A stretch of DNA of 32,000 nucleotides, taken from assembly GCA_048938295.1 (NCBI GenBank), contig JBHLMI010000014.1, positions 27,185 to 59,184 on the forward strand, written 5' to 3'. The notes beneath the pieces were generated by a model. The model had not been told where the DNA came from and did not search any database. It worked only from the letters and a program-made list of their open reading frames with translations. The position numbers were made by a program, and so were the translations under genes. This document shows positions 1,204 through 20,811 of this stretch, in pieces. Source of the stretch: Promethearchaeota archaeon. GTDB taxonomy: Archaea; Asgardarchaeota; Hermodarchaeia; Hermodarchaeales; Hermodarchaeaceae. Positions within the stretch are counted from its first letter, which is position 1. The number at the start of each line of letters is the position of its first letter.

Positions 1204-1749
1204 TTGACCAACAATTCTGACAAACTTATTCGCCAGCTACATACTAACATCGTTGCTTTAACTCGCACTCCTAATTTTAGGAGGTTAGTCCCGGAAGTGG
1301 GGGGGAATTTTGTGGCTTGCATAACTGGTGCCACTAAATTGTCGCAAGTTGCAGGATTGACAGGTCGTATCATTTTAGTACGTGGCGAACCAAAGCCGAT
1401 CGGTGAAGTCGAACTGGGCTGGGCACCCTTTATGGGTCGAGTCCTGTTGAAAGCTCATAGCCTGAACAACACTATCCATTCAGCTGTGTCACTGAAATAT
1501 TCTACAACTATTGTTGATGCAGCGCGTCAAGCAGAGTTACAGGTTGTGGGATTCCGGCTAGGAGAAAACAAGCCTGTTCCCGATTGTATGACGTTGGAGG
1601 CACTCAATAAGTTTGGATTCGTACCAGAGGTATTGTTTGACTGGGGAGCCCATGGAATCGAGCCGCTCGTTGTTGTGTTTGGCGAGACTCCCACTGTTGT
1701 CACCAAACGCGTAAGAGCAATTCTAGCGAAATTAGCCGTTGATGAGTGA
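1204..1749 (+). CDS. Stand-alone thiamine-phosphate synthase (ThiN)-like domain protein, possibly catalytically divergent
   Basis: Motifs VPEVGGN, VAGLTGRI and VPEVLFDWGAHGIEPLVVVFG match the archaeal ThiN/ThiR C-terminal domain pattern. TTG start with GAGG upstream. No HTH or ThiD fused. Confidence 0.72.
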   Translation: MTNNSDKLIRQLHTNIVALTRTPNFRRLVPEVGGNFVACITGATKLSQVAGLTGRIILVRGEPKPIGEVELGWAPFMGRVLLKAHSLNNTIHSAVSLKYSTTIVDAARQAELQVVGFRLGENKPVPDCMTLEALNKFGFVPEVLFDWGAHGIEPLVVVFGETPTVVTKRVRAILAKLAVDE

Positions 1750-2509
1750 CAGGAGCTTGACTAATAATCCAAGAAAAGAATCGGAACATACGAATGAGGT
1801 GAGCCAAGCGTTTGGTGCAATTGCCTCATTCTATGATTCATGGTACCAGTCGCCTGTCGGAGGTTACGTCTGGGCTGTTGAAACAGAAGCGATTCAAGCG
1901 CTACTTCCAGAACCTCAAGGTGGAGTCGCGTTAGAAGTGGGTGTTGGAACTGGAATGATAGCAACCATAGTCCAAGATCCCTCACTACAATTTGTGGGTG
2001 TTGATGTTGCCTGGCAAATGCTTGCTATCGCCTATCAGAAACTCCAAAAAACGGAAAATCTACATCTGGTGCGATCCGATGGAGAACACCTTCCTTTTCG
2101 AAGGAAATGTTTTGACCTAGCACTAGCCATGACGTTGCTTGAATTCGTTCCAGACCCGGACCAAGTTCTATCCGAGATTCATCAATGTCTACAACCTGTC
2201 GGGTATCTCCTATTAGGAATACTTTCATCAACAAACCTGTGGGCAATTGAAAGACGAATCCGGAGTTTCGTTCAACCTGATGTCTTCAGATTTGCCCGAT
2301 TTCCAAGCCCATGGCAGGTTATCCGCTTACTTAATCGGAATGGATTTTCACAGGTTCAATATAGGGGTTCCGTGTATGCACCTACGTTTACACCGACACG
2401 GTGGCTTCCAAGATTTGCTTCCTTGGAACCGACATTGGGAACACGGTGGTTGAGTCGTGCTTTAGGTGCTTTCATTGTGTTTTCCGCTAGACGAAGCATG
2501 CTCAAGTGA
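1742..2509 (+). CDS. Class I SAM-dependent methyltransferase (UbiE/Methyltransf_11-like)
   Basis: Motif I LEVGVGTG, VGVDVAWQML, DGEHLPF and LEFVPDP..VLSEIHQCLQPVG. The ATG at 1742 overlaps the upstream stop. Confidence 0.85.
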   Translation: MSDRSLTNNPRKESEHTNEVSQAFGAIASFYDSWYQSPVGGYVWAVETEAIQALLPEPQGGVALEVGVGTGMIATIVQDPSLQFVGVDVAWQMLAIAYQKLQKTENLHLVRSDGEHLPFRRKCFDLALAMTLLEFVPDPDQVLSEIHQCLQPVGYLLLGILSSTNLWAIERRIRSFVQPDVFRFARFPSPWQVIRLLNRNGFSQVQYRGSVYAPTFTPTRWLPRFASLEPTLGTRWLSRALGAFIVFSARRSMLK

Positions 2510-3488
2510 TTTGGCCCGTATATCGCGTATATGGGTCTTCTCCAGGTTTAAGACGCTCTGACTTTTCATCAGCTTCAACTATCACCTGCTTCTTTTTGGT
2601 GAACGATCCGATGACAGCCGCCTTTCTGTTGAAACCTTTAACCGACTGGATGATCTCGTTTGCTGCTTCGTTCTCTGTGACGACCAGAAAGTTGCCAAAA
2701 GATGAACAATAAAGGGGGTTCCAGCGCAGATAATTGAATAGATTGAGGCTGGATTCATCCCAGGGAATCTCACTAGCCTGAATCGTGATTCCTAGCCCAG
2801 TCGCCTGCTTTAGCTCAAACAAAGCCGTAGCTAGCCCCCCTTCCGCAATATCATGTAACAGCGCTATTCTTTCCCTGGGAAGGTGGTTTATAAGAGGGAC
2901 CACTGAGAACGGGCCTAGGTCAGCTGCAATCTCTTCTCGCCGTGGACGCGAGAGGATTGCATCGACAGTTGACGGCTCCACATTGGCTAAGAACCATAGA
3001 GTTTCACGCGCAATTGGCCCCACCGCAATTAGCACATGTCCAGGAGATACTTTGGGTATTGGAGGGGATTCATCAGGAAGGATACCGATACAGGTGCTCG
3101 TGAACACCGGAATAGTAAGCCCGTCATAACCGCCAGTATGACCCCCGAGGATTTTAAGATTTAACTGGTTCGCCTCTTGACCAAGTTGGGTCATGGTTGT
3201 TGAAAGCCATTCTTCTTCTGTATCTGGTGGATAATATATTCCTAAGGACAGATATTGAGGGGTTGCCCACGCCATAGCGACATCTGTAGCAGAATAATGG
3301 ACCGCAAAAAACCCATAGAACTGAAGAGGTATCCCGAGTACAGGATCTGAGGCAACGACGACATTCCCCTCTATTCGAGCTGAGCCATAGTCTAGGAGAA
3401 TGGAACGAGGATCATCGACACGGGGCAAATGTGGAAAAACTAGGCGTTCTAGATCAGGTAACATGAGTTTGCCTTTTGGCAGGGTCAT
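2502..3488 (-). CDS. AIR synthase-related protein (PurM/ThiL/HypE/SelD superfamily)
   Basis: SDPVLG, AVHYSATDVA, ILGGHT and LHDIAEGGL motifs. GGAGG lies 7 nt upstream and TTATAA lies just upstream. Confidence 0.8.
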   Translation of the reverse strand: MTLPKGKLMLPDLERLVFPHLPRVDDPRSILLDYGSARIEGNVVVASDPVLGIPLQFYGFFAVHYSATDVAMAWATPQYLSLGIYYPPDTEEEWLSTTMTQLGQEANQLNLKILGGHTGGYDGLTIPVFTSTCIGILPDESPPIPKVSPGHVLIAVGPIARETLWFLANVEPSTVDAILSRPRREEIAADLGPFSVVPLINHLPRERIALLHDIAEGGLATALFELKQATGLGITIQASEIPWDESSLNLFNYLRWNPLYCSSFGNFLVVTENEAANEIIQSVKGFNRKAAVIGSFTKKKQVIVEADEKSERLKPGEDPYTRYTGQIT

Positions 3489-10257: not shown

Positions 10258-10664
10258 TAGTCAATACTTTGTCCAATTAGGTGCGCGGCACCAATTAATC
10301 TCCGCATTTTAAATTTACTGATTAGCTTACTTAAAATCCAAATCGAAAATAAATATGAATGGAGTGGTCTCCCCTCCATGCTTATCTTAACATGCGCCTA
10401 AGCGCCTATAAAGCAAGAAATAGAGGCTTCTTAACTGTCTAATTCAGTATTATTCTAATTATTTCATATATTTCGAGAAAAAACTGGTAGAAACATGGCA
10501 AATCAGTAAAAAGAGGCTTTTAGAGCTTTCTTACGTAAATCTATCCAAGCATGTCTAGAAAATATAACAATAAAATAGTACTTCGAAGCATAAAAGTCGC
10601 CTATAAACCATAATTCAACCTAGTCGACGTATGACGACAAAACATGATTGTTTGAGGTCTGTTT
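10258..10664. promoter_or_regulatory. AT-rich 407-bp divergent intergenic region with repeated motifs
   Basis: CGCCTATAAA at 10403-10412 and 10598-10607. AGAGGCTT at 10422-10429 and 10512-10519. Tandem GCGCCTA at 10394 and 10402. GAGGT lies 6 nt before ATG 10665. Confidence 0.5.
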
Positions 10665-12062
10665 ATGGCAATTACTTCCGAGGAACCTTTAGAAAATTTG
10701 GAGAAACGCATTCTAGCACGTTTAGATATCGCCGATCAGAGTGATATGAAGAACCTGATACGAAATGTGATTCTATTCATTAAGCGTATTCATGGCGAAT
10801 TGCTAAGCGATGTTGAAAAGAAATTCCCTCCTCATTTTCAGTTTTCACATATACAAACCTCAGGAGGGCAAAACACGGCAAAGGCCTTGTATCACCGCTT
10901 ACAACTAATCGATAGGTATCAGCTAGATAAGCCTGCGTTAATTGAGGACGTTTTAACCAACAATCTTCCCATAGGGAGTGAAGTACCTTTATCGGCGCGA
11001 AAGGCCCAGATTCTTTGGCAGTTGAACCATGATCCAACCCTCCCAAAATACAAGCTGGCAAAGAAGGTGGGAACAACACCTAGGACGATATCAAAGGATT
11101 TAGCGGAATTGGAACAAAATTATGCGTTTCGGATTTACACTTCCGTAGATCCGCATCGATTTCACCTGATTATGAAGATGATTTTTTTTAAAACAAAATC
11201 AATTGAACACACTAAGAAATTTGAGAGGTATGTAACAAGACACCGGGGGTTTCTTCGGACATATCGGATTGACCAGGATATGCAGAGAGGGGCCATCATT
11301 TTTCGGTATCCTAACCAACATAGAGCGCATAGAATGTTTGACGAGCGGGTTCGCTGGCTTCAAGACGAGTTCTTTACCGAATGCAATCTTGTCCAGGCCC
11401 TCGGATTGCACCAATCAGTTTCCCTTGAAATGTATAATCCTTCAACGCATACATTTTCGATTGAGCCAGAAATAGTTTCTCAGGTTCCTTTTGATTACGG
11501 TAGCAGTTCTTTGGACACACTACCTCAGCCACGAGGATTTGACTTCATGGAACCATTTTGGTTTGACCAGGCAGATTTTCTCATAGTTGACATGTTGTAT
11601 TCATCTGGATTATTTAGTCATCCAGATTACAAACAAAGTCTTTTGAAGCGGTATGGCATCAATTACTCGAAGAAATCGATTTGGAAGAAAGAACAGCGCC
11701 TTCGGAAAGAAAAGGCGGGTTTCCCGACAATTGGATTACAAATCCCGGCTTTTGATGAGGAGCTGGTTATCGTCGTTTTCTGCACCTTAAGTGCTACTTT
11801 ATCGATTCAGGCGATTTCAGCATTCCTTCCCTTTGTGATGATTGTCAAAACGGATTCTGGATGTGTGCTACGAATCCAGCGCCCGGTTCACTCCGCAACT
11901 CTTACGGCTCAATTAATCCGTAAAATCCATCGTCAAATAGGAGTAACTGAGGTGAAATTGTTGCGATATCCTGATAGATTGCCAAGTCAGTATTTTCCTG
12001 GGATGGTTGAGCGCTGGAATACGGCAAACCAGAAATGGGAAATTCAGGTTGGAGACATTTAG
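10665..12062 (+). CDS. Large putative transcriptional regulator, paralogue 1 (N-terminal helical domain plus two winged-HTH / Lrp-AsnC-like modules)
   Basis: First HTH: LSARKAQILWQLNHDPTLPKYKLAKKVGTTPRTISKDLAEL. Second HTH-like segment: DQADFLIVDML...YGINYSKKSIWKKEQRL. Clear similarity to the ORFs at 12082 and 17203. Confidence 0.7.
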   Translation: MAITSEEPLENLEKRILARLDIADQSDMKNLIRNVILFIKRIHGELLSDVEKKFPPHFQFSHIQTSGGQNTAKALYHRLQLIDRYQLDKPALIEDVLTNNLPIGSEVPLSARKAQILWQLNHDPTLPKYKLAKKVGTTPRTISKDLAELEQNYAFRIYTSVDPHRFHLIMKMIFFKTKSIEHTKKFERYVTRHRGFLRTYRIDQDMQRGAIIFRYPNQHRAHRMFDERVRWLQDEFFTECNLVQALGLHQSVSLEMYNPSTHTFSIEPEIVSQVPFDYGSSSLDTLPQPRGFDFMEPFWFDQADFLIVDMLYSSGLFSHPDYKQSLLKRYGINYSKKSIWKKEQRLRKEKAGFPTIGLQIPAFDEELVIVVFCTLSATLSIQAISAFLPFVMIVKTDSGCVLRIQRPVHSATLTAQLIRKIHRQIGVTEVKLLRYPDRLPSQYFPGMVERWNTANQKWEIQVGDI

Positions 12063-12081
12063 GAAAGGAGAAGAATCAAGA

Positions 12082-13512
12082 ATGACCCAAAAAGAGGGAA
12101 GTTGCATCTCAAAGGATTGGGAAACTCCCATTGATGCGAAGCGGATTGAGGACATTATCGCCCGTTCTGAACCTGTTGAAGATCAAGAAGATTTGCGATC
12201 CTTTCTCACAAACGTGTGTCTATTTCTCAAACGTGTAGATGGCGTTGACCTTACAGAGGAAGAAAAGATGTATCCGTCACATTCACAGTTTTCGCACCTA
12301 ACCTTCCGTAAAGATCGGAGCACTGCCGAGGGTTTGAAATATCGACTTCAAATTATCGACCGTTATCAAATTACAAACGCCCAACAAATAATCAACATCA
12401 TTGCCTCCACTGCTGTATCAACTCCAGAGGGGCGACTAACTCCACGACAGACTCACCTTATCAAAGAACTACACAAAAGCCCTGAGTTGACCCAATATGA
12501 ACTCGCTGAAAGACTTTCAACCACGCCTCAGGTCATTCGGACTGAGTTAACACAACTACGTCAGTCATTTTCTTTAGCTGTCGTCTATAATCTAGATTTC
12601 GGAAAATTCCGACTAGCATTATATGAGATTGATTTCCAAACGCGTTCTCTTGACGCCTCAGAAGAGATGGAAAGGCATTTTCGGCGAAACCCGCCAGTAT
12701 TCCTTCGTCGGATAAACTTCGACCATAATTATCGTGATGGATTCTTACATTTTTCAATACCCGACCAACCCTCCGGTCGTGAGATGCTTACTCAACGCAT
12801 AAACTGGCTTAATTCAAACTTCCTTGAGAAATCAACTTATTTTCGAATGCAGAGTTTTCGTATTGATATCTCCTTTGAAAATTATGACATAGCTACCGGA
12901 AATTGGATGCTGAATAGTGACTCATTCTCCGTTGGAATGCTCCGATTCATTTCCAACACTGATCATGAGCATTTGCCACCGCGAAAACATGTGTATTCTG
13001 AGCCAATACGATTTGACAGAATTGATTACATCCTTGCATCAACGCCCTATGTCTTTGGAGAAAAGCAGCACACAGAAATTTGCCAGAAAGTTTTGGAACG
13101 ACATGGATACTCAATTTCTAAGAAGACGATTTGGAACCGTCAAAAGAAACTCATGCAAGCAGGTGCATACTATCCTTCAGTTTGGTATGATACTCCAGAA
13201 TTAGAGGAGCTAGTAAAATTCAGCATTGAATGTTCATCTAAGGCCTTAGAACCTATTTATCGATTAATCTCAATTCTGCCTTATACTTTTTCTGTAGAAA
13301 CGGATACAGGGCTGACCTTTTCGTTCCATCGACCTAGTCGTTGTTCTTCCATAACAGGACTTTTGGCACAAGCCTTTGAACAGATTGATGGTGTCTCAGA
13401 TGTAAGCATTTTCCGCTATGAGCCTACTTTTAGCCCTCAATTGTTTACTCAAACGGCGGATAGATGGGACGAGAGCCGTCAACGCTGGCTCCCCCGAAAA
13501 GGCGACATCTAA
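12082..13512 (+). CDS. Large putative transcriptional regulator, paralogue 2
   Basis: HTH: LTPRQTHLIKELHKSPELTQYELAERLSTTPQVIRTELTQL. Second module: DRIDYIL...HGYSISKKTIWNRQKKL. Start moved to ATG 12082 (GGAG 11 nt upstream, 19 nt after the paralogue 1 stop). Confidence 0.72.
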   Translation: MTQKEGSCISKDWETPIDAKRIEDIIARSEPVEDQEDLRSFLTNVCLFLKRVDGVDLTEEEKMYPSHSQFSHLTFRKDRSTAEGLKYRLQIIDRYQITNAQQIINIIASTAVSTPEGRLTPRQTHLIKELHKSPELTQYELAERLSTTPQVIRTELTQLRQSFSLAVVYNLDFGKFRLALYEIDFQTRSLDASEEMERHFRRNPPVFLRRINFDHNYRDGFLHFSIPDQPSGREMLTQRINWLNSNFLEKSTYFRMQSFRIDISFENYDIATGNWMLNSDSFSVGMLRFISNTDHEHLPPRKHVYSEPIRFDRIDYILASTPYVFGEKQHTEICQKVLERHGYSISKKTIWNRQKKLMQAGAYYPSVWYDTPELEELVKFSIECSSKALEPIYRLISILPYTFSVETDTGLTFSFHRPSRCSSITGLLAQAFEQIDGVSDVSIFRYEPTFSPQLFTQTADRWDESRQRWLPRKGDI

Positions 13513-13518
13513 GCCATA

Positions 13519-14421
13519 TTATTTACTCGCGTGGGCGTGGATTATTGAATAGAAGTGATCCACCAGTTGTTCTGCGATGTTAATATCAGTAACCTGCTGT
13601 AATCCTTGCCAACCACTGCTGCTGTTGACTTCGGTTACGATAAGCCCTTTTTCTGTTTCCAAGATGTCAACGCCTGTGTATTCAAGGTCTATAGTTTCAG
13701 CGCATTTCGTTGCAAGTTCTGATAATTCAGATGTAAGGCGACAAGGTTGGGGCTGAGCACCTTGTCGGAGAGCAGTTTTCCAAGTATCACCCAGTCGGGT
13801 CATTGCAGCGATAGCTTTCTTACCGATTACGAAGACCCGGATATCGCGATTTCCATGTTCGAGGAATTCTTGAAGGTACATGACGTAATGACTCGCTTCA
13901 AGTGCACGAAACACTCGTCTAGCGATTTCGTGGTCTGAAATACGGGTCATGCCCACACCCCCTGATCCGAAAAGGGGTTTGACTACGACATCTTTGTATC
14001 TTCGAAATGCACGGAGAGCATCACCTGTATATTGGGTTACTGTTGTACGGGGCACAGGGACACCTGCTAATTCTAAGAGGCGTAGGGTGTAGTATTTGTC
14101 CACAGCTTTTTCGATTGCATGTGGACGATTCATAAAGGGAATACCAAGTCGTTCAAGACAATGAAGGGCGTCCATCCGCAAAATAACTTGTTCGAGTGAG
14201 CCACCCGGAACGGCCCGGGTGAATACCCCTTCAAGATTTGTTAAATCCTCTTTTTTGTATTGCACTCGTGGGCTGTTTCCTCCAACACGGACAACGGTTT
14301 CGGTGAGATCAAATACGACACATTCTACATCTCGTTGTTCAATCTCTTTTACGACCTGACTTGTCTCCCAACCTTCAGGTTCAGCTGAGGCGACTCCTAC
14401 TCGGTGAATCTCTTTGCCCAT
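13519..14421 (-). CDS. RimK-family ATP-grasp alpha-L-glutamate ligase (MptN/CofF-like)
   Basis: GGSLEQVILRMDALH, DKYYT, VVKPLFGSGGVG, LQEFL, DIRVFV and GVDIL...EVNSS motifs. Directly downstream of cofE. Confidence 0.82.
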   Translation of the reverse strand: MGKEIHRVGVASAEPEGWETSQVVKEIEQRDVECVVFDLTETVVRVGGNSPRVQYKKEDLTNLEGVFTRAVPGGSLEQVILRMDALHCLERLGIPFMNRPHAIEKAVDKYYTLRLLELAGVPVPRTTVTQYTGDALRAFRRYKDVVVKPLFGSGGVGMTRISDHEIARRVFRALEASHYVMYLQEFLEHGNRDIRVFVIGKKAIAAMTRLGDTWKTALRQGAQPQPCRLTSELSELATKCAETIDLEYTGVDILETEKGLIVTEVNSSSGWQGLQQVTDINIAEQLVDHFYSIIHAHASK

Positions 14422-14427
14422 CTCGTT

Positions 14428-15210
14428 TCACCGTCGAAAAATATCTCGTTGTGCATCCCGAATAAGCATCTCAGCCGAGCCCTCACCCTTCTCATATTGG
14501 TATCCACGAATCACAACGGCGGCGTTTCCTTCATCGGCTTCACCCATTATTAACTCAGCAGCCGAAGCGAGTTCATCAGCAATAGCAACTTTAGTTGTTC
14601 GTAACTCATACCCGAAGAGATCGGTCAATCCAATGTAACTCTTAACGGGAATAAAGCCTGCGACCCCAATTGCAACATTAATTGCCCCTTCACGGAATGG
14701 TCGTCCATGCGTATCGGAAATAATGACCACGACATCAATCCCGAATTGGACCTTGATGGTTTCTCGGATCTGTTCCGCAGAATGATTCGGATCTTCAGGT
14801 AGTAGAGTCACACACTCATCCTCTGGTACATTGGAAGCATCGACTCCTGCATTTGCACAGACATATCCATGTGGTGTCTCAACGATGAGATGGCCCTGCT
14901 CTGCCCGCACCACTTGCTTTGAAGCTTGAAGAATCACTTCCACAAGCTTAGGTTCTTTACCGAGTTGTTGGGCTAAGGCTTTCGCCTTAGGAGAAGGAGT
15001 AATGTCTGAGAGTGCAACAGTTCGACCTTCGGCTCGAGAAATGATGGTTTGTGCGATAACTAAGACATCTCCGTTTTGTAGCGGAAATCCGCTCTTTTGA
15101 CTAGCTTCACAAATGTGGATGCCTACATCATCACCTTTCCGGATTATCCCTAGCCCAGGTAATGCATGAACAGAATACGATGGGGAAGGAGTGACTTTGG
15201 ATGGTGACAT
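14428..15210 (-). CDS. cofE: Coenzyme F420-0:L-glutamate ligase
   Basis: GDVLVIAQTIISRAEGR, CANAGVDASN, LLPEDP..SA, ISDTHGRPFREG and DELASAAELIMGE motifs. Confidence 0.92.
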   Translation of the reverse strand: MSPSKVTPSPSYSVHALPGLGIIRKGDDVGIHICEASQKSGFPLQNGDVLVIAQTIISRAEGRTVALSDITPSPKAKALAQQLGKEPKLVEVILQASKQVVRAEQGHLIVETPHGYVCANAGVDASNVPEDECVTLLPEDPNHSAEQIRETIKVQFGIDVVVIISDTHGRPFREGAINVAIGVAGFIPVKSYIGLTDLFGYELRTTKVAIADELASAAELIMGEADEGNAAVVIRGYQYEKGEGSAEMLIRDAQRDIFRR

Positions 15211-15239
15211 ATTCGGGTCTGTCGGGATTCCGTACTACC

Positions 15240-15292
15240 AGCTTAAGAGTTTGCCGACTTGGAAGTTAACAAAGGAAGGAAAGTTATAAAGA
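15240..15292. promoter_or_regulatory. Back-to-back archaeal promoters for cofE (minus strand) and gelsolin (plus strand)
   Basis: Plus strand: BRE-like GGAAAG at 15278-15283 followed by TTATAAA at 15284-15290. Minus strand: GGCAAACTCTTAAG about 33 nt before the cofE ATG. Confidence 0.6.
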
Positions 15293-15348
15293 CGAGAACC
15301 ACTTCAGCAGTCCTAACATTGACCCATACTTACTTGAGTGCTTAGAGC

Positions 15349-15966
15349 GTGGAAGACATGGCTAAGAAATTCATCAAATACCATATTCAAAAAGATCAAC
15401 TAGTCCGGGTTCCACAAGAATATCTGAAAGAATTTGGAACCGGTGATGTATACCTGATTGATACAGGTCCTATTATCTATTCATGGGCGGGTAAGAAATC
15501 CACTCTAGATGAACGGTTCATTGGTGCCATTACCTCCGTATGGACTGATCAAGATCGGAAGGGAGCTGTAAAACTAGTCACTGTAAACGAAGGCGAGGAG
15601 CCCAAAGAGTTTTTGAACCTCTTCGATGGCAAGATTAAAGTTACCGAGCAAGACACAGAAGGAATCCTGAAACGCGTAGCCCTCAAAAATCACGAGTTCA
15701 AGCTCTTCCGAGTTCACATCGAAGAAGAGCTAAACATGTATTATGAGGTCGAATGCTCCAAAGACTCCCTCGCTTCAGATGATGTCTTTTTACTGGACAC
15801 GTATAATACTATCTACATCTGGCGAGGACAAAAATCGACGGCTTTCGAACGCTGGGAAGCAATGCGAATTGCCGAAGGATATGATGCCCAACGCTCAGGT
15901 CACCAAGAGGTGATCATCGTCGAAGAGGGCGAAGAACCCGAAGAATTCTTCAAACTCCTCAAATAA
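15349..15966 (+). CDS. Two-domain gelsolin (Asgard 2DGel-type actin regulator)
   Basis: Two gelsolin repeats: GDVYLIDTGPIIYSWAGKKS..DER...EGEEPKEFLNLF and DDVFLLDTYNTIYIWRGQKS..FER...EEGEEPEEFFKLL. They are joined by EQDTEGILKRV (WH2-like LKRV motif). Start may be GTG 15349 or ATG 15358. Confidence 0.9.
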   Translation: MEDMAKKFIKYHIQKDQLVRVPQEYLKEFGTGDVYLIDTGPIIYSWAGKKSTLDERFIGAITSVWTDQDRKGAVKLVTVNEGEEPKEFLNLFDGKIKVTEQDTEGILKRVALKNHEFKLFRVHIEEELNMYYEVECSKDSLASDDVFLLDTYNTIYIWRGQKSTAFERWEAMRIAEGYDAQRSGHQEVIIVEEGEEPEEFFKLLK

Positions 15967-15989
15967 CCTGAATGGCAAGAATAGAAGTG

Positions 15990-16079
15990 GAGCCCAAGAA
16001 GGGGGGAAGAAACCCTTTTCGTTTAATTTAATCATAGACCCTCAAAGCCCTTCTTGGTTCGTTCCCGCTGGTCTTTTTT
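15990..16079 (+). terminator. 3' structure and oligo-T tract after the gelsolin gene
   Basis: CCAAGAAGGG (15994-16003) is complementary to CCCTTCTTGG (16048-16057). A TCTTTTTTG tract follows at about 16072-16080. Confidence 0.45.
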
Positions 16080-16105
16080 GCTTGATCTCGATATCACCTG
16101 TCAAC

Positions 16106-16163
16106 CCAGTTGAGCTCTGGCCCAGTGCAGGCGAGAGACACTGGGCCGGAGCCATGTGACTGG
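16106..16163. other. Strong GC-rich stem-loop between convergent genes
   Basis: 14-bp stem 16114-16127 / 16139-16152 (13 Watson-Crick pairs plus 1 G-U on the plus strand) with an 11-nt loop. A basal helix CCAGT 16106-16110 / ACTGG 16159-16163 extends it. Confidence 0.7.
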
Positions 16164-16511
16164 TTAAGTGGCTTCATCGAGGACTAAGCTAACGAATTTC
16201 CCCAATCGACCTGTGTGTTCGATGGCCTTGATAATGCGGGCCTCGTGCGATGCTTTTTTCACGAGCAGATGATTCTCGCGAACAACGGCGAGTTCCGTAA
16301 GAAGGTCAAAGAGTCGACGCAGTTCCATTCGATCGACTTGCTGAGAAAGGCGTTCCAGGAGGCGGAACACGTCATTCATCTCAACCTTCTTGAGTTGGTC
16401 GAAGTTGTCCGTGACATCTTGCGACCGCAAATAGGATCGGGCCAAGCGTACAATTGGGTCGCTTGTGTCTTCTGTCCCTGTGGTCACGGCAATTCCCCTC
16501 AGAGTCGCCAT
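16164..16511 (-). CDS. Hypothetical all-alpha protein, 115 aa (possible death-fold/EAD-like domain)
   Basis: Start moved to ATG 16511, 1 nt after the upstream TAG, with GGGGGTG upstream. The sequence shows amphipathic helical periodicity. The CDS is well supported; the fold is a guess. Confidence 0.65.
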   Translation of the reverse strand: MATLRGIAVTTGTEDTSDPIVRLARSYLRSQDVTDNFDQLKKVEMNDVFRLLERLSQQVDRMELRRLFDLLTELAVVRENHLLVKKASHEARIIKAIEHTGRLGKFVSLVLDEAT

Positions 16512-16512
16512 G

Positions 16513-16776
16513 CTAAGCACCCCCAATGCTGGCGACGCTTGAGACTTCATGACCAGTCGGTTCAACGCGGACGCGAACTCCACCAGGAGTTGCCTCGACG
16601 ATGATCCGACCCTTTAGGCCGGTGGTATCCTTGACTAATTCTAATAGCAAGGTACCAATCGCTCCGATTTCTCGGAGGTCTTCACACCTCGTTTTCGGGG
16701 TGATGTTGATATCGATTGGATAGGCATCATTGATGCCAATCATTCGCTGGGTTTCTTCCATCAGTTCTGTAGCCAC
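16513..16776 (-). CDS. Hypothetical alpha/beta protein, about 87 aa (possible TRADD-N-like topology)
   Basis: GTG 16776 with AGGTGGAG upstream; alternative start is ATG 16761. MATELMEETQRMIGINDAYPIDINITPKTRCEDLREIGAIGTLLLELVKDTTGLKGRIIVEATPGGVRVRVEPTGHEVSSVASIGGA. Abuts the downstream ORF. Confidence 0.6.
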   Translation of the reverse strand: MATELMEETQRMIGINDAYPIDINITPKTRCEDLREIGAIGTLLLELVKDTTGLKGRIIVEATPGGVRVRVEPTGHEVSSVASIGGA

Positions 16777-17202
16777 TTTTTCTCCACCTTTCTGAACACA
16801 TCTAGGGAAAAATAATCTGAAGCAGAACAATGCATACCTAATATCGCGAGGACCATTGAGCAAGCCAAACTCAGGTGTTGGTCCGGTTCACATGGGATAG
16901 GTTACATCGCGACCAGGTGACATTGTTTCTTTTTCACTTCCGACATGTTTTCCCGTGCGAGTGTGTTTGCTGGAATCTACCTCAACAATGGGCACTACCC
17001 TTTAAGTACCCGTTTAGAGAGCCCCTAATGGAGCGGACAAAAACGCCGTTTCCGGCAAAAGAAGCATCCAAAGCGTAGGATTAGCATTAAACTTGATTCT
17101 ATTGATGTATTCAAGTAATTGAGTTTTAAGTCAACTCGTATATGATAGGGTTTTCGTCAAAAGGAAACATTATATATTCGTTTCTTTCTTTCTGACGATG
17201 GT

Positions 17203-18639
17203 GTGGCGCGCGTGCAATCAATGGTTGAAGTAGCTGATTTGCTCTCGACATTACAGCGCAATATCCATGAAGTTCTACGTCCAAGTGAAGAACTGTACGA
17301 GATTGACCTTCTCCTTGATAACTTAAGAGTCTATGCAAAGCGCGTTAAAGGCATCACCCTCTCTGACGAAGATTATCGACTTCAACCATATAAGGACTTT
17401 TCCGGAATGGTTGTAACGCCACGAGAGCGAACCTATAACTCGTTACTCCGCCGCTTGAAAGTGATCCTTCGCTTCAACATCACCTCTTATGAGAAGGTTA
17501 CCCGAGATTTGTTGCGAGGGCTGGTATCTGATGAAGTTGACCGTCTAACCGGAAGAGAAATCCGATTAATGACCTTGTTATATCAACGTCCAACGACACC
17601 ACAAAGAGAGATTGCCAAAGAAATGAAAGTTAGCCTTCCAACGATACGAAAAGACATCAAGTCGTTGGAAGAAAAAATCGATTTACGATTCGCGAATTTG
17701 ATTGACTGGGGTCGGTTCAAGCTACGTCATTATGGCCTCATCTTTAACACAAAGGGTGTTGATGTGTCTCGATATCTTGCCAACGTGCTCAACAAAGAGA
17801 TGGCGACCTACTTATCGACAGTAAACTTTGATACATCCTTACAGCGAGGGTTTGCTGCTTTTCGTATTCCTGATCAGGGAAAACCAGTTCAACTGTTTTT
17901 AGAGCAAGTGGAATTTCTTGGTGACCACTTCTTTGAGTGGCATCAGCTTCATCAAATTACGAAGTACCATCAATCTGTATGCTTTGACTATTTCGATTAC
18001 GATACTAGCACCTGGATGATTGAAGGCGATGTTTCAACACTTGGGCTCCTTAATTTTGTTCGAGAAAACTGGGCTATTCTCCCCAAACCCCGTGGATTAT
18101 CCAATACGCTAGCACGGCCCTTTGACAAACTAGATTTCTATCTTACATCTTTTCTTGTTGGAGATGCTCACGCTTCAATGAAGAAAATAATGGAGCGGTT
18201 GAAGACCGTTGATATTGAGGCTCCCCGTACAACTATTTCAACTCGGAAGAACCGGTTATATAAGGAAAGAACAATGGAGCCTTTCTTCACCTTTTCAACA
18301 CCCCAGCTTCCCTTTTTCATCACTTTTGCCATTCGATGTGAACCTCATATCGCGGAGCAACTAAGTGTAGCAGTTGCACAAATGCCTCAGGGCTTTGCAT
18401 CAATTACTAAGATTGGATGCATTCTCCACGTTTATGCGCCTTCACGGAGCCTCGGAACTATTCTCAATGCTATTTCCATGACACTTGAAGAAGAGGGTGT
18501 TGAGGAGGTGTGGCAGATGCAGGAGTTTAAGAACATGGGAGCTTATGGTCCTGCTCAACTTGCTCCGAAGTGGAATGGCTCGTATTGGACTTGGTCAGAA
18601 GACGAGTTTGCTATTCCATCATTGGGGTTGGAGTATTAG
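17203..18639 (+). CDS. Large putative transcriptional regulator, paralogue 3
   Basis: HTH: LTGREIRLMTLLYQRPTTPQREIAKEMKVSLPTIRKDIKSL. Second module: DKLDFYL...DIEAPRTTISTRKNRL. Shares the N-terminal KR[IV]xG...FS...RL..I.R[YF] motif with paralogues 1 and 2. Confidence 0.72.
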   Translation: MARVQSMVEVADLLSTLQRNIHEVLRPSEELYEIDLLLDNLRVYAKRVKGITLSDEDYRLQPYKDFSGMVVTPRERTYNSLLRRLKVILRFNITSYEKVTRDLLRGLVSDEVDRLTGREIRLMTLLYQRPTTPQREIAKEMKVSLPTIRKDIKSLEEKIDLRFANLIDWGRFKLRHYGLIFNTKGVDVSRYLANVLNKEMATYLSTVNFDTSLQRGFAAFRIPDQGKPVQLFLEQVEFLGDHFFEWHQLHQITKYHQSVCFDYFDYDTSTWMIEGDVSTLGLLNFVRENWAILPKPRGLSNTLARPFDKLDFYLTSFLVGDAHASMKKIMERLKTVDIEAPRTTISTRKNRLYKERTMEPFFTFSTPQLPFFITFAIRCEPHIAEQLSVAVAQMPQGFASITKIGCILHVYAPSRSLGTILNAISMTLEEEGVEEVWQMQEFKNMGAYGPAQLAPKWNGSYWTWSEDEFAIPSLGLEY

Positions 18640-18720
18640 AGTAGTTCTTTGAAAGAGTTTTTCATGCTCTAATTCACAGTTATTATCCTATAGCAAATTT
18701 TGGTAGTGTTAGAGATTAAG

Positions 18721-19743
18721 ATGCCGATTGTTGTTCGGGAAGGGGATTTCATCGAAACCACTGAAGGTTTGATTTTTGATACTAAGGGGCTTCTACATCC
18801 GCCTGATCGCACTATTGCTTTCCTGCGTTATTATCCTACACCCCAAGGGAAACGTAGGCGAGGAAATCATCGGTATGATAAGGTCTACCATCTTGCTGAG
18901 CGGTTTGATTATCTTCGACAACATTACCCCAAATATCTATACGAGGATGCAGTTTTCGGACAAGAATTACAGGGGGTTCCACATACTTCTGTTCGGCAGA
19001 TCTATCAACCAAAAGAGAGCCTCCACCATTTGAAGGAGCAGGAGAAACGAGATGCTCTGCAGCAGGATGTGGTAACCTTTGCAAAAATTCTCGAGGACAC
19101 GGCTCGTGTGTCACAGGACTCGTTAGGGATTTCGGGAAGCATCCAGGTTAATCTTCATGGAGACGCTTCGGATATCGATTTAATCGTTTATGGGCGTCGT
19201 GCGGCACGAGCGGTTCAACTGGCTTTACGTCGGGCACATTTAATGCCCGAGGAAGGAATCTCGGGGTATCGTCTGGATACCTACCGCCCGGTTTACAACC
19301 TACGCTGGTCGGGCTCAGGTATTTCTATTGAAAAGATGTTGTTAGTGGATGGATTGAAATCCATGCACGGAGTGTTTGGTGGCCATCATTATTTTGTCCG
19401 AGCAGTCTTGGAGTGGGATGAAATTCATGAGCAGTATGGTGACAGCAAGTATCGTCCATTGGGTCAGGCACGTGCACATTGTAGAATCACGGATGATCGT
19501 GATGGACTCTTCACTCCTTGTCGATATGAAATCGAAGCGGTGAAGCTACTAGAAGGGCACTTTGATGTTGAATTACGGGAAATCGTGAGTTTTCGTGGGC
19601 GGTTCGCTGAACAAGTCCGTCAAGATGAGGAGGCAATTGTGCGAGGAACAGTGGAACTAGTTGAATCTGGAAAAGAAAAATGGGGACGGTTTGTGTTGGG
19701 AAATGATCCGACAGATATCTTATTACCGAGTAACGTCCTTTGA
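18721..19743 (+). CDS. Archaeal Pol-beta-superfamily nucleotidyltransferase (COG1665-like), copy A
   Basis: REGDFIET.EGLIF..KG..HP..R.IAFLRYYP N-terminus and GISGSI...H...SDIDLIVYG signature. The C-terminus (YEIE...EIVSFRGRFAEQV...VRG.VE) looks OB-fold-like. Start placed at ATG 18721; the track uses TTG 18700. Confidence 0.8.
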   Translation: MPIVVREGDFIETTEGLIFDTKGLLHPPDRTIAFLRYYPTPQGKRRRGNHRYDKVYHLAERFDYLRQHYPKYLYEDAVFGQELQGVPHTSVRQIYQPKESLHHLKEQEKRDALQQDVVTFAKILEDTARVSQDSLGISGSIQVNLHGDASDIDLIVYGRRAARAVQLALRRAHLMPEEGISGYRLDTYRPVYNLRWSGSGISIEKMLLVDGLKSMHGVFGGHHYFVRAVLEWDEIHEQYGDSKYRPLGQARAHCRITDDRDGLFTPCRYEIEAVKLLEGHFDVELREIVSFRGRFAEQVRQDEEAIVRGTVELVESGKEKWGRFVLGNDPTDILLPSNVL

Positions 19744-19764
19744 ATATGTGGCGGAGGCTTAGGG

Positions 19765-20811
19765 GTGGCACGCCTTCCGAAAGACAAAGATTACGTCGAA
19801 AGCAAAGAGGGACTCTTTTTCACGATTGTGGGGTATTTGCATCCCCCTGATGCCTATACTGCCTATCTGAAGTACCGCCCAGATCCGAAAGGAAAATGGG
19901 AACGCGAAGGCGTCAAGTATCAGCGCATGATGCAAGTGTATAGTGCCGCTGAGGTGGAATCCAGTAGTAAATGGCTCTTAGACTATTACCCGGAATACAT
20001 TCAGCTTGACCCCGTACGGGGCATTAAGCTCCCTTTGGTTCCATGGGAGAACATCGTGGCTTATTACTTGCCTGAAGTGCGATTGACTGAGATTCTACGT
20101 GATCCACAGGACCCGTTGGAATCTAAAACAAAAGCTCTTGTTACGTTATTATCAGAAAGAAGTGGTGTTGAGGAGAATCGGTTTGGGATTTCGGGTTCGA
20201 TTTTACTTGAACTTCACAATCCGATGTTCTCAGATATTGATCTGCTTGTTTACGGGCAAGAAAATGCACATCGTGTTCGGAACGTGATGGACGAGTTATT
20301 TGGTGAAGATCTGATTAAACCATATTCAGGTGAAGAGATTCAAGCGTGGCAATTGAGGCAAGTTCGTACTTTGGGCATTCCTACGCAATACGCGGAGCAG
20401 ATTTCGTGGTCGCATTGGCAACGGGGACGGTTTGGGCAAACAGCTTTTTCGATTAGTCCTGTTCGTATGGATGTAGAAATTATGGACCAGTATGGTGCTG
20501 AGACTTATTCGCCAGTGGAAAGTGTTCAATTAACAGCGACCATTGTGGAAGACGAGGACAACCTTTTCGTGCCGGCCCATTATTTGGTGGGAGAAATTAC
20601 TATGGAAGAGGGGGATACAGAACTACCTTCCTTAACCGAGGTTCTCTCGTTTGAAGGTGTTTTTTCTGCTGTATTCAATCGAGGTGATCAGGTCCGCATT
20701 AGAGGAATGGTTGAAGCGATTCGTGATACGGCTGGGAATGTTATACGTAATCATGTTGTTGTGGGAACACTTGCAACTCAGGGTTGGATTGTCCGAATTC
20801 CTTCATTCTGA
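19765..20811 (+). CDS. Archaeal Pol-beta-superfamily nucleotidyltransferase (COG1665-like), copy B
   Basis: KDKDYVESKEGLFF..VGYLHP...YTAYLKYRP and GISGSILL.LHNP.FSDIDLLVYG motifs. Same overall architecture as copy A, 21 nt downstream of it. Confidence 0.8.
   Translation: MARLPKDKDYVESKEGLFFTIVGYLHPPDAYTAYLKYRPDPKGKWEREGVKYQRMMQVYSAAEVESSSKWLLDYYPEYIQLDPVRGIKLPLVPWENIVAYYLPEVRLTEILRDPQDPLESKTKALVTLLSERSGVEENRFGISGSILLELHNPMFSDIDLLVYGQENAHRVRNVMDELFGEDLIKPYSGEEIQAWQLRQVRTLGIPTQYAEQISWSHWQRGRFGQTAFSISPVRMDVEIMDQYGAETYSPVESVQLTATIVEDEDNLFVPAHYLVGEITMEEGDTELPSLTEVLSFEGVFSAVFNRGDQVRIRGMVEAIRDTAGNVIRNHVVVGTLATQGWIVRIPSF

Follow-up and report, generated by a model that had tools for sequence, protein, structure and literature searches.

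The window analyzed here, a 32,000-nucleotide stretch of Promethearchaeota archaeon DNA, carries three related genes for proteins of about 470 aa, and the question that it raises is what these proteins are and what they do. Asgard archaea are the closest prokaryotic relatives of eukaryotes, and to our knowledge, hardly anything is known of how their genes are regulated. We consider it fairly likely, for the explanation as a whole, that the three genes, together with two further genes on contig C41 of the same genome, represent an uncharacterized family of single-chain Lrp/AsnC pseudo-dimer regulators. The family has no Pfam model, and no published description of it was found in the literature searched.

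Paralogue 1 (par1, P0001; 465 aa) lies at 10665..12062 on the plus strand and was assigned from its ORF, translation, orthologues, and AlphaFold (AF2) model. Paralogue 2 (par2, P0002; 476 aa) follows at 12082..13512 on the same strand with its own SD-like AAGGAG, and paralogue 3 (par3, P0003; 478 aa, GTG start) lies at 17203..18639, also on the plus strand; par2 was assigned by homology and clade membership, and par3 by homology and its conservation in the taxonomic family. The ORFs sit where a sequence-only reading of this DNA had placed them. That reading described three divergent paralogues with a shared layout, which agrees with the end-to-end BLASTP alignments of par1/par2 (29% identity, E 8e-78), par1/par3 (25% identity, E 4e-41), and par2/par3 (25% identity, E 1e-48) and with the AF2 model, in which the layout is reproduced. 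Also as described there, a gap of 19 nt separates the par1 stop codon (12060-12062) from the par2 ATG (12082), with AAGGAG just upstream of the latter, and both proteins end in GDI. The two genes are probably co-transcribed. The interval between par2 and par3 encodes a RimK-like ATP-grasp protein, CofE, gelsolin, and two orphans; the paralogues do bracket the cofE/gelsolin/orphan block, with the ATP-grasp gene as an additional member.

The proposed local expansion was borne out only in part. The genome contains five close copies, namely the three in the window and the two on C41, and two remote copies on contig C47. The five close copies fall in separate subclades with orthologues of their own, with par1 and par2 grouping inside one 41-row clade, and the layout of the close copies recurs at the same spacing across the genus. 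Paralogue 3 is retained in all 18 searched genomes of the taxonomic family. Of the splits, only that between par1 and par2 looks genus-specific, since a single gene or no gene stands at their position in the sister genus. The three paralogues are thus real, but the triplet is not purely local, and the expansion as a whole is neither recent nor local. Orthologues of par1 in Asgard MAGs show 42-78% identity and are nearly all 463-471 aa long, mostly 465 aa. A count of copies across Asgard genomes, which had been suggested as a check on the expansion, gave family matches in 81 of 301 genomes, about a quarter of those sampled, and most of the genomes carrying the family have a single match. To date, the family is known from Asgard archaea only, and its remote members are automatically annotated as 'DNA-binding Lrp family transcriptional regulator'. 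The related-locus search with a single family protein led to one named genome, Ca. Hermodarchaeota FT1_005. A 467-aa ORF (L006:1055-2458) was ruled out as a family member (hhalign 0.2%).

The AF2 model of par1 (pLDDT 81.8, pTM 0.72) places seven parts in order, all encoded on the plus strand. The N-terminal helical domain (aa 1-105, 10665..10979), delimited from the models, contains helices at 9-18, 22-42, 49-52, 69-84, and 90-98. It is followed by wHTH 1 (aa 108-153, 10986..11123), assigned from an HTH_11 match (E 3e-6), LrpC/LrpA profile matches, and charge, and by RAM-like domain 1 (aa 156-252, 11130..11420), a beta-alpha-beta-beta-alpha-beta unit recognized from model secondary structure and Lrp/AsnC structural alignments. 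An acidic linker (aa 253-298, 11421..11558) with lower pLDDT (56-76) and a mean net charge of -3.4 leads to HTH 2 (aa 299-348, 11559..11708), which rests on the comparison of the two halves by hhalign, on conservation and charge, and on the relative P0144. RAM-like domain 2 (aa 352-435, 11718..11969; model, hhalign, and conserved columns including C373, G399, and P407) precedes the C-terminal tail (11970..12059), which is marked by the conserved columns W451 and W458, kept in about 90 of the 98 family members. The second HTH/RAM repeat, on which the sequence-only reading had staked its claim, is therefore present in the model. When the profiles of the two halves were aligned with hhalign, they matched at 91.5% (E 8.7e-7) over 130 collinear columns. 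BLASTP of the first against the second half in five paralogues gave nothing (best E 0.3), and the repeat is visible at the profile level only.

The best structural match of the model was the siroheme decarboxylase NirDL (4ch7), with Z 14.3, 280 of 309 residues aligned over model residues 111-464, an rmsd of 5.0, and a Foldseek E of 4.8e-6. Lrp/AsnC regulators came next, with Z 8-9 over about 140 residues at 108-253 (2dbb, 2cfx, 4pcq, 9w4w, 2gqq, and others), and Foldseek matched the same part of the predicted model to many Lrp/AsnC chains with a probability of 1.0. In the comparison of the family profile with PDB profiles, LrpC (E 0.0013) and LrpA (E 0.0019) were matched from the HTH into the RAM domain (111-192). 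The profile repeat, the NirDL match, the matches of single Lrp/AsnC regulators to 108-253, and an N-domain that matches nothing in Pfam, the PDB, or the ESM Atlas together support the earlier suggestion that these proteins are covalently fused Lrp dimers to which an N-terminal domain has been added. An internal duplication would have given each chain two wHTH + RAM modules behind a helical domain of about 100 residues without known relatives. Judged by the NirDL superposition, the two RAM domains of one predicted chain appear to be packed like those between the subunits of a normal Lrp dimer.

The clear margin by which NirDL leads the structural matches (Z 14.3 versus about 9) also speaks for a different function, in which the proteins would catalyze a reaction or bind a cofactor in the manner of the siroheme decarboxylases NirDL/AhbAB; these decarboxylases are a precedent for the double Lrp fold acting as an enzyme (PMC4145669, PMC4835899), and the F420 tail-synthesis genes (CofE, RimK-like) adjoin par2. 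However, the conserved HxYxR motif that faces the cavity in AhbA/AhbB (PMC4145669) was absent from all 98 full-length family members (regex H.Y.R). PF17805 (AsnC_trans_reg2) and PF22451 (NirdL-like_HTH) had no match at E<=1 in the paralogues, and PF17805 had none in the whole genome, whereas control genomes do match it. The best scores of the AhbC and AhbD models against this genome, which is 91.6% complete so that absence is not proven, were 193 and 308 bits, far below the cut-offs of 650 and 500. Moreover, a set of five to seven paralogues whose recognition helices are basic and conserved is easier to reconcile with regulators than with one enzyme of a pathway. Taken together, an enzymatic role seems very improbable.

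The two HTHs carry much of the regulator reading. In the Pfam and NCBIfam searches of the three paralogues, only the first HTH was recognized: HTH_11 scored above the cut-off in par1 and par3 and just under it in par2 (24.4 versus 25 bits), and HTH_24 scored above it in par3 (22.9 versus 21.9 bits). HTH_AsnC-type matched the distant members P0064, P0073, P0088, and P0168 below the cut-off, and in the relative P0144, its match falls at the position of the second HTH. Both HTHs are net basic, with a mean of +4.2 for wHTH 1 in the core clade and about +4.5 to +4.8 for HTH 2, and no segment is better conserved or more basic than the recognition helix of HTH 2 (column entropy 1.47). Since the HxYxR motif is missing, the decarboxylase Pfam models are unmatched, and both HTHs are basic, we interpret the family as Lrp-type regulators in which one chain forms a pseudo-dimer. 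The evidence for regulators over enzymes is indirect, and some points weigh against it. The RAM-like domains fall short of Pfam AsnC_trans_reg (PF01037), which had no match at E<=1 in par1, par2, or par3 despite 15 canonical matches in the same genome, all outside the three paralogues. In addition, the best structural match, NirDL, is an enzyme, and we know of no reported role in gene regulation for its HTH domains.

A regulator of this kind would bind DNA through two non-identical basic HTHs, and its sites would therefore be asymmetric or imperfectly palindromic; the target need not be a palindrome. In the RAM-like domains, residues of the beta2-beta3 hairpins are conserved (D203/G209 and T396/G399), and by analogy with Lrp/AsnC proteins, these hairpins probably sense a small molecule. 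Strongly basic HTHs would also be expected of architectural, low-specificity chromatin proteins, that is, Lrp-like nucleoid-associated proteins rather than ligand-gated specific regulators, and some archaeal Lrp-type proteins are global or architectural, for example Sa-Lrp (PMC3584215). The conservation of the ligand-hairpin residues argues against this, as does the finding that each paralogue forms its own orthologue group with a distinct, conserved upstream element, and the presence of several diverged copies in one genome is more in keeping with specific regulons. We regard a chromatin role as decidedly unlikely.

The motif of the N-terminal domain, KR[IV]xGxxL..FS..T..LxxRLxxIxR[YF], which had been picked out beforehand, is visible as invariant alignment columns (K40, R41, G44, L47, F60, S61, T71, L75, R78, L79, I82, and R84). 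No Pfam family matched the domain at E<=1. Folded alone, it gave nothing specific by Foldseek against the PDB (best E 1.1), generic helical matches by VIA-align against 48,161 chains (best Z 6.6), and no usable match in the ESM Atlas (TM<0.5). The domain thus has no recognizable relative in Pfam, the PDB, or the ESM Atlas, as had been supposed. The two C47 proteins (577 and 588 aa) give hhalign matches of 95% and 87% to the core of the family and share the fused double-Lrp core with the window paralogues, but their N-terminal region of about 200 aa shows no similarity to the domain of about 100 aa in the window family. The N-terminal position therefore appears to take different domains on the same core, and the variable domain would probably serve higher-order assembly or partner contacts. 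Forms of 350-380 aa seemingly lacking the N-domain were also encountered; of the two looked up, P0088 (376 aa) represents a cluster whose longest members reach 503 aa, and the annotation of P0119 marks it as partial, so they provide no evidence for a core-only form.

The arrangement of the genes allows a further reading, in which adjacent genes (par1 and par2, the C41 pair, and the C47 pair) encode obligate hetero-oligomers. Two different pseudo-dimers would then form a dimer with four distinct HTHs and with the N-domain as the pairing interface. All three multi-copy loci of the genome are tandem or near-tandem pairs, a tandem pair is also found in the complete genome G039 from another Asgard family, par1 and par2 are only 19 nt apart, and obligate heteromers with this fold are already known from AhbA/AhbB (PMC4145669). 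However, tandem duplication is enough to explain the adjacency, at most one gene stands at the par1/par2 position in the sister genus, and one match is the rule in Asgard genomes carrying the family. Obligate pairing is conceivable on these grounds but rather unlikely.

For the single-chain regulators, upstream elements offer candidate sites. An imperfect palindrome, TCGTCAAAAGGAAAC-N11-GTTTCTTTCTTTCTGACGA, surrounds a TATA-like ATTATATAT at 17154..17198 (assigned to neither strand), overlaps the par3 promoter, and ends 4 nt short of the start of par3. In the 2.5-Mb genome, this is the only place matched by a degenerate, gapped pattern built from the palindrome. The palindrome is near-invariant in 9 genomes of the genus and recognizable in one of the two aligned sister-genus genomes (G018), and as an RNA hairpin it is weak (z -1.4). 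The inverted repeat, its conservation, and its position make it a candidate operator. Most likely, par3 acts through this unique palindrome, which brackets the TATA-like box, to repress its own, probably leaderless promoter. Upstream of par1, an AT-rich region (10258..10664, 34% GC, likewise strandless) contains five blocks conserved across the genus in an alignment of 10 genomes; these include the inverted repeat of a hairpin at 10353-10385, which carries the invariant GGTCTCCCCTCC, as well as CCTATAAA. The 12-mer GGTCTCCCCTCC occurs once more in the genome, within a coding gene, probably by chance. The window had no Rfam match, and no common motif was found when the upstream regions of the different paralogues were compared. 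Paralogues that are about 25% identical and have different upstream elements suggest separate regulons.

Paralogue 3 may also control the divergent two-orphan operon at 16164..16863 on the minus strand, a candidate target by its presence in the taxonomic family and its position beside par3. With the first orphan as query, matches were obtained in all 18 genomes of the taxonomic family and in none of the other families, and the gene runs divergently from par3 both in the window and at all three sister-genus loci compared (G015, G017, and G018). Divergent ORFs beside family members in G025 and G039, which belong to other Asgard families, showed no similarity to the window orphan; with these loci, the link between regulator and orphan is therefore not reproduced beyond the taxonomic family. 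The synteny is that of close relatives only, among which it counts as weak evidence. Paralogue 3, its unique promoter palindrome, and the conserved divergent two-gene unit form a concrete regulator-operator-target hypothesis that is testable in vitro without culturing.

In one Hermodarchaeota-type genus, the family has expanded to five to seven copies. When both halves of a pseudo-dimer lie in a single chain, the two DNA-reading heads can diverge, which would permit asymmetric site recognition of a kind more familiar from eukaryotic factors. A bolder proposal, which we regard as a long shot, is that the double-Lrp barrel senses a cofactor-sized ligand and that the Asgard-specific N-domain links pairs of differing pseudo-dimers into hetero-tetramers contacting the basal transcription machinery; a deazaflavin F420 species or a tetrapyrrole would be the candidate ligand, as suggested by a cavity like that of NirDL and by cofE/cofF-like genes in the flanks. 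If true, such cofactor-sensing hetero-tetramers would amount to transcription factors of a modular, combinatorial type for which we know of no example outside Asgard archaea.

No account of a double-Lrp architecture with an N-domain as a regulator was found in the literature searched, and the 2010 Lrp review makes no mention of tandem or fused forms. Compared with the Lrp/AsnC (FFRP) regulators, such as PH0061 of P. horikoshii (2dbb), LrpC of B. subtilis (2cfx), LrpA of P. furiosus (1i1g), and Lrp of E. coli (2gqq), each half of the window proteins has the same order of a wHTH followed by a RAM-type domain, the HTHs are likewise basic, and the sequence profiles match weakly but collinearly. 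The known regulators are homodimers of chains of about 150 aa joined through their RAM domains, whereas in the window family a single chain, about 470 aa long, carries two modules and adds the N-terminal helical domain of about 100 aa, a 45-aa acidic linker, and the Trp tail. Unlike those of canonical Lrp/AsnC proteins, its RAM-like domains are too diverged for PF01037. The double Lrp/AsnC fold itself is shared with the fused NirDL (4ch7/4czc) and the heterodimeric, two-chain AhbA/AhbB (4un1), from which the window family differs by its extra N-domain and its multiple paralogues.

Three open reading frames on the forward strand were compared: par1 (10665-12062, 465 aa), par2 (12082-13512, 476 aa), and par3 (17203-18639, 478 aa, GTG start). 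The par2 frame lies 19 nt from the par1 stop, and AAGGAG precedes its ATG. The proteins aligned over their full lengths with 25-29% identity (pairwise BLASTP E values of 8e-78, 4e-41, and 1e-48), confirming the paralogy proposed in the sequence-only reading. The N-terminal motif described there consists of invariant columns in the paralogue alignment, and GDI is indeed the C terminus of both par1 and par2. Pfam recognized a single winged HTH at approximately residues 110-160, with HTH_11 above the cut-off in par1 and par3 and slightly under it in par2, and HTH_24 above the cut-off in par3; the first 100 and last 300 residues had no Pfam match. In NCBIfam, extra HTH matches, LrpA, Lrp, and LysM among them, were sub-threshold only. 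When PDB sequences were searched with the profile of the family represented by these proteins, LrpC (E 0.0013; positions 111-192, covering the HTH and the start of the RAM domain) and LrpA were retrieved, together with very weak matches of PH0140 to positions 299-391 in the second half.

An AlphaFold2 model built from a 10-sequence alignment (pLDDT 81.8, pTM 0.72; par1 numbering) comprises helices at residues 9-98, a first HTH (111-153), a first beta-alpha-beta-beta-alpha-beta unit (156-252), a linker of lower confidence (253-298), a second three-helix unit (302-348), a second beta-alpha-beta-beta-alpha-beta unit (352-435), and, after residue 435, a short C-terminal tail containing W451 and W458. 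The top Foldseek hits of this model were the siroheme decarboxylase NirDL (4ch7, 4czc), followed by approximately 30 Lrp/AsnC regulators with a probability of 1.0. In VIA-align, NirDL reached Z 14.3, with 280 residues aligned over 111-464, and single-module regulators scored clearly below it (Z 8-9 over 108-253). NirDL itself consists of two AsnC-like units, duplicated in tandem and fused, and its two ferredoxin-like domains together make up a single barrel (PMC4835899; PMC4145669); a best structural match to such a double protein therefore indicates that the paralogue protein is a fused Lrp dimer. BLASTP of the first against the second halves of the paralogues found nothing, and hhalign of profile 105-255 against 296-440 from the 98-sequence family alignment gave a collinear alignment of 130 columns (91.5% probability, E 8.7e-7). 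Together with the NirDL match, this alignment bears out the earlier proposal of a covalent fusion. The remote relative P0144 has a Pfam HTH_AsnC-type match where the second HTH sits.

An alternative in keeping with the NirDL match is that the family proteins are enzymes of the NirDL/AhbAB siroheme decarboxylase type, which we consider very improbable. An HxYxR motif that points into the cavity is conserved in both AhbA and AhbB (PMC4145669); H.Y.R occurred in none of the 98 family members, searched over their whole sequences. Neither PF17805 nor PF22451 matched par1-3 in Pfam, PF17805 had no match in the entire source genome (91.6% complete) and did match control genomes, and the genome's scores for the AhbC and AhbD models were far under the cut-offs. 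In the core clade, the two HTH units carry net charges of +4.2 and +4.8, and the linker is acidic. No other stretch of the protein is as conserved or as basic as the recognition helix of the second HTH, SKK[ST]IW.[KR]..[KR]L. Both RAM-like domains also have conserved residues in their beta2-beta3 hairpins (D203/G209 in the first, T396/G399 within a TD.G pattern in the second), and in Lrp/AsnC proteins effector contacts are made at this hairpin of the RAM domain. Because the decarboxylase signatures are absent, the HTHs are basic and conserved, and the hairpin residues are retained, we infer that the family proteins are likely regulators, predicted to bind DNA and probably responsive to a ligand.

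The N-terminal domain, modeled alone from 37 sequences, formed five helices (pLDDT 83.7). Foldseek against the PDB returned nothing (best E 1.1), the best exhaustive VIA-align matches were generic or designed helical bundles at Z 6.6, under the noise level stated for helical models, and the ESM Atlas gave no usable match. The suggestion that this domain belongs to no known family thus held in Pfam, the PDB, and the ESM Atlas. More distant clades match only its last two helices (approximately residues 60-100). On contig C47 of the same genome, two adjacent remote family members (locus L007, 3322-5055 and 5444-7210; 577 and 588 aa, 30% mutual identity) match the family in the double-Lrp core at hhalign probabilities of 95% and 87%, and their N-region of approximately 200 residues is unrelated; therefore, the common core appears to accept various domains at the N-terminal position. 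A VWA-domain gene adjoins this pair.

The genome (2.5 Mb, 66 contigs) contains five close copies: par1-3 and a further two that are separated by 680 nt on contig C41. The C41 pair is followed, 2.6 kb downstream, by a gene (L006:12773-13996) for a 407-aa protein in which a TackOD1 output domain (PF18551, E 4e-34) is joined to an AsnC-type HTH. In a FastTree phylogeny of 98 full-length members, with local support only, the five copies fell into one well-supported clade, in separate subclades with their own orthologues, and par1 and par2 grouped inside one 41-row subclade. The family was present in all genus genomes searched (14 of 14 in one search, 9 of 9 in another), with 2-6 matches each, most often five, and the spacing par1-par2-5 kb-par3 recurred wherever contigs spanned the locus. 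Separate orthologues and recurrence across the genus point to an old and stable multi-copy state belonging to one genus. The idea of a local expansion therefore does not stand for the set as a whole, but a recent origin is plausible for the par1/par2 split alone: the sister genus retains par3 together with the entire surrounding gene order, and where par1 and par2 would be it carries a single gene equally close to both (33% and 32%) or no gene at all. At one sister-genus locus (L011, G015:C97, approximately 1680-3328), a MobA-like gene directly adjoins a RimK-like gene with no par1/par2-type regulator there, but par3 and the remaining genes of the block are retained. Among 301 Asgard genomes with completeness of at least 80%, five candidates being scored per genome, 81 had a family match at E<=1e-10. 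One large Asgard family accounted for matches in 56 of 71 genomes, usually one each, and two others had none at this threshold (0/92 and 0/27). The named members looked up came from Thor-, Odin-, and 'Asgardarchaeia' MAGs, one par1 orthologue was labelled 'Bathyarchaeota', and the nearest named genome was Ca. Hermodarchaeota FT1_005. Databases annotate the proteins as 'hypothetical protein', and remote members automatically as 'DNA-binding Lrp family transcriptional regulator'.

Immediately before par3 is an imperfect palindrome with a TATA-like centre, TCGTCAAAAGGAAAC-ATTATATATTC-GTTTCTTTCTTTCTGACGA (17154-17198), whose right arm stops 4 nt short of the GTG. Nine genus genomes show almost no variation in the block from approximately 17152 to the start codon, whereas the adjoining intergenic DNA is variable, and the palindrome is still recognisable in G018, one of two sister-genus genomes aligned. 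A degenerate, gapped pattern derived from it matched the genome only at the palindrome itself, and as RNA it folds poorly (z -1.4). Its position and conservation suggest a candidate operator overlapping the promoter of a leaderless par3 transcript; an operator over par3's own promoter would imply autorepression. Divergent from par3 is a two-gene orphan unit (16164-16863, reverse strand). The first orphan was found in 18/18 genomes of the taxonomic family and, with the same query, not beyond it; it is divergent from par3 in the window, as it is in each of the three sister-genus genomes compared by coordinates, one of which lacks par1/par2. At two loci of the regulator family from other Asgard families, the neighbours were unrelated to this orphan. 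A second, distant copy of the first orphan (27% identity), present in the genus too, lies on contig C10 (13128-13430), where no family regulator was detected. Upstream of par1, a 407-nt stretch (34% GC) has five blocks conserved in the genus. Among them is a small hairpin, ATATGAATGGAGTGG / CCCCTCCATGCTTAT (10353-10385), without an Rfam match; it contains the 12-mer GGTCTCCCCTCC, which is invariant in 10 genus genomes amid otherwise variable intergenic DNA; its one other genomic copy is inside a coding gene.

Several neighbouring genes were also recorded. Two paralogous proteins of approximately 347 aa (18700-20811, forward strand) follow par3 by 60 nt, may be co-transcribed with it, and are conserved after par3 in both sister-genus loci; the second weakly matches Pol-beta nucleotidyltransferase. 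Between the regulators, 15349-15966 encodes a 205-aa Asgard eukaryotic-signature protein with two gelsolin repeats (PF00626, E 6e-28), its position kept in the sister genus. At 13519-15210 (reverse strand), CofE (F420-0:gamma-glutamyl ligase) is followed directly downstream by a RimK-type ATP-grasp gene in the same orientation, and the pair is kept in the sister genus. Because archaeal CofF is a RimK homologue, these genes may be a cofE-cofF pair building the F420 tail.

No published description of the family was found in the literature searched. Lrp/AsnC regulators are mechanistically the nearest known system and NirDL/AhbAB architecturally the nearest. The family falls outside the RAM-domain sequence definition and the single-module architecture of Lrp/AsnC proteins, and it departs from the siroheme decarboxylases on three of four points. 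It is therefore filed as a variant form of the Lrp/AsnC kind, a member of neither Lrp/AsnC nor NirDL/AhbAB.
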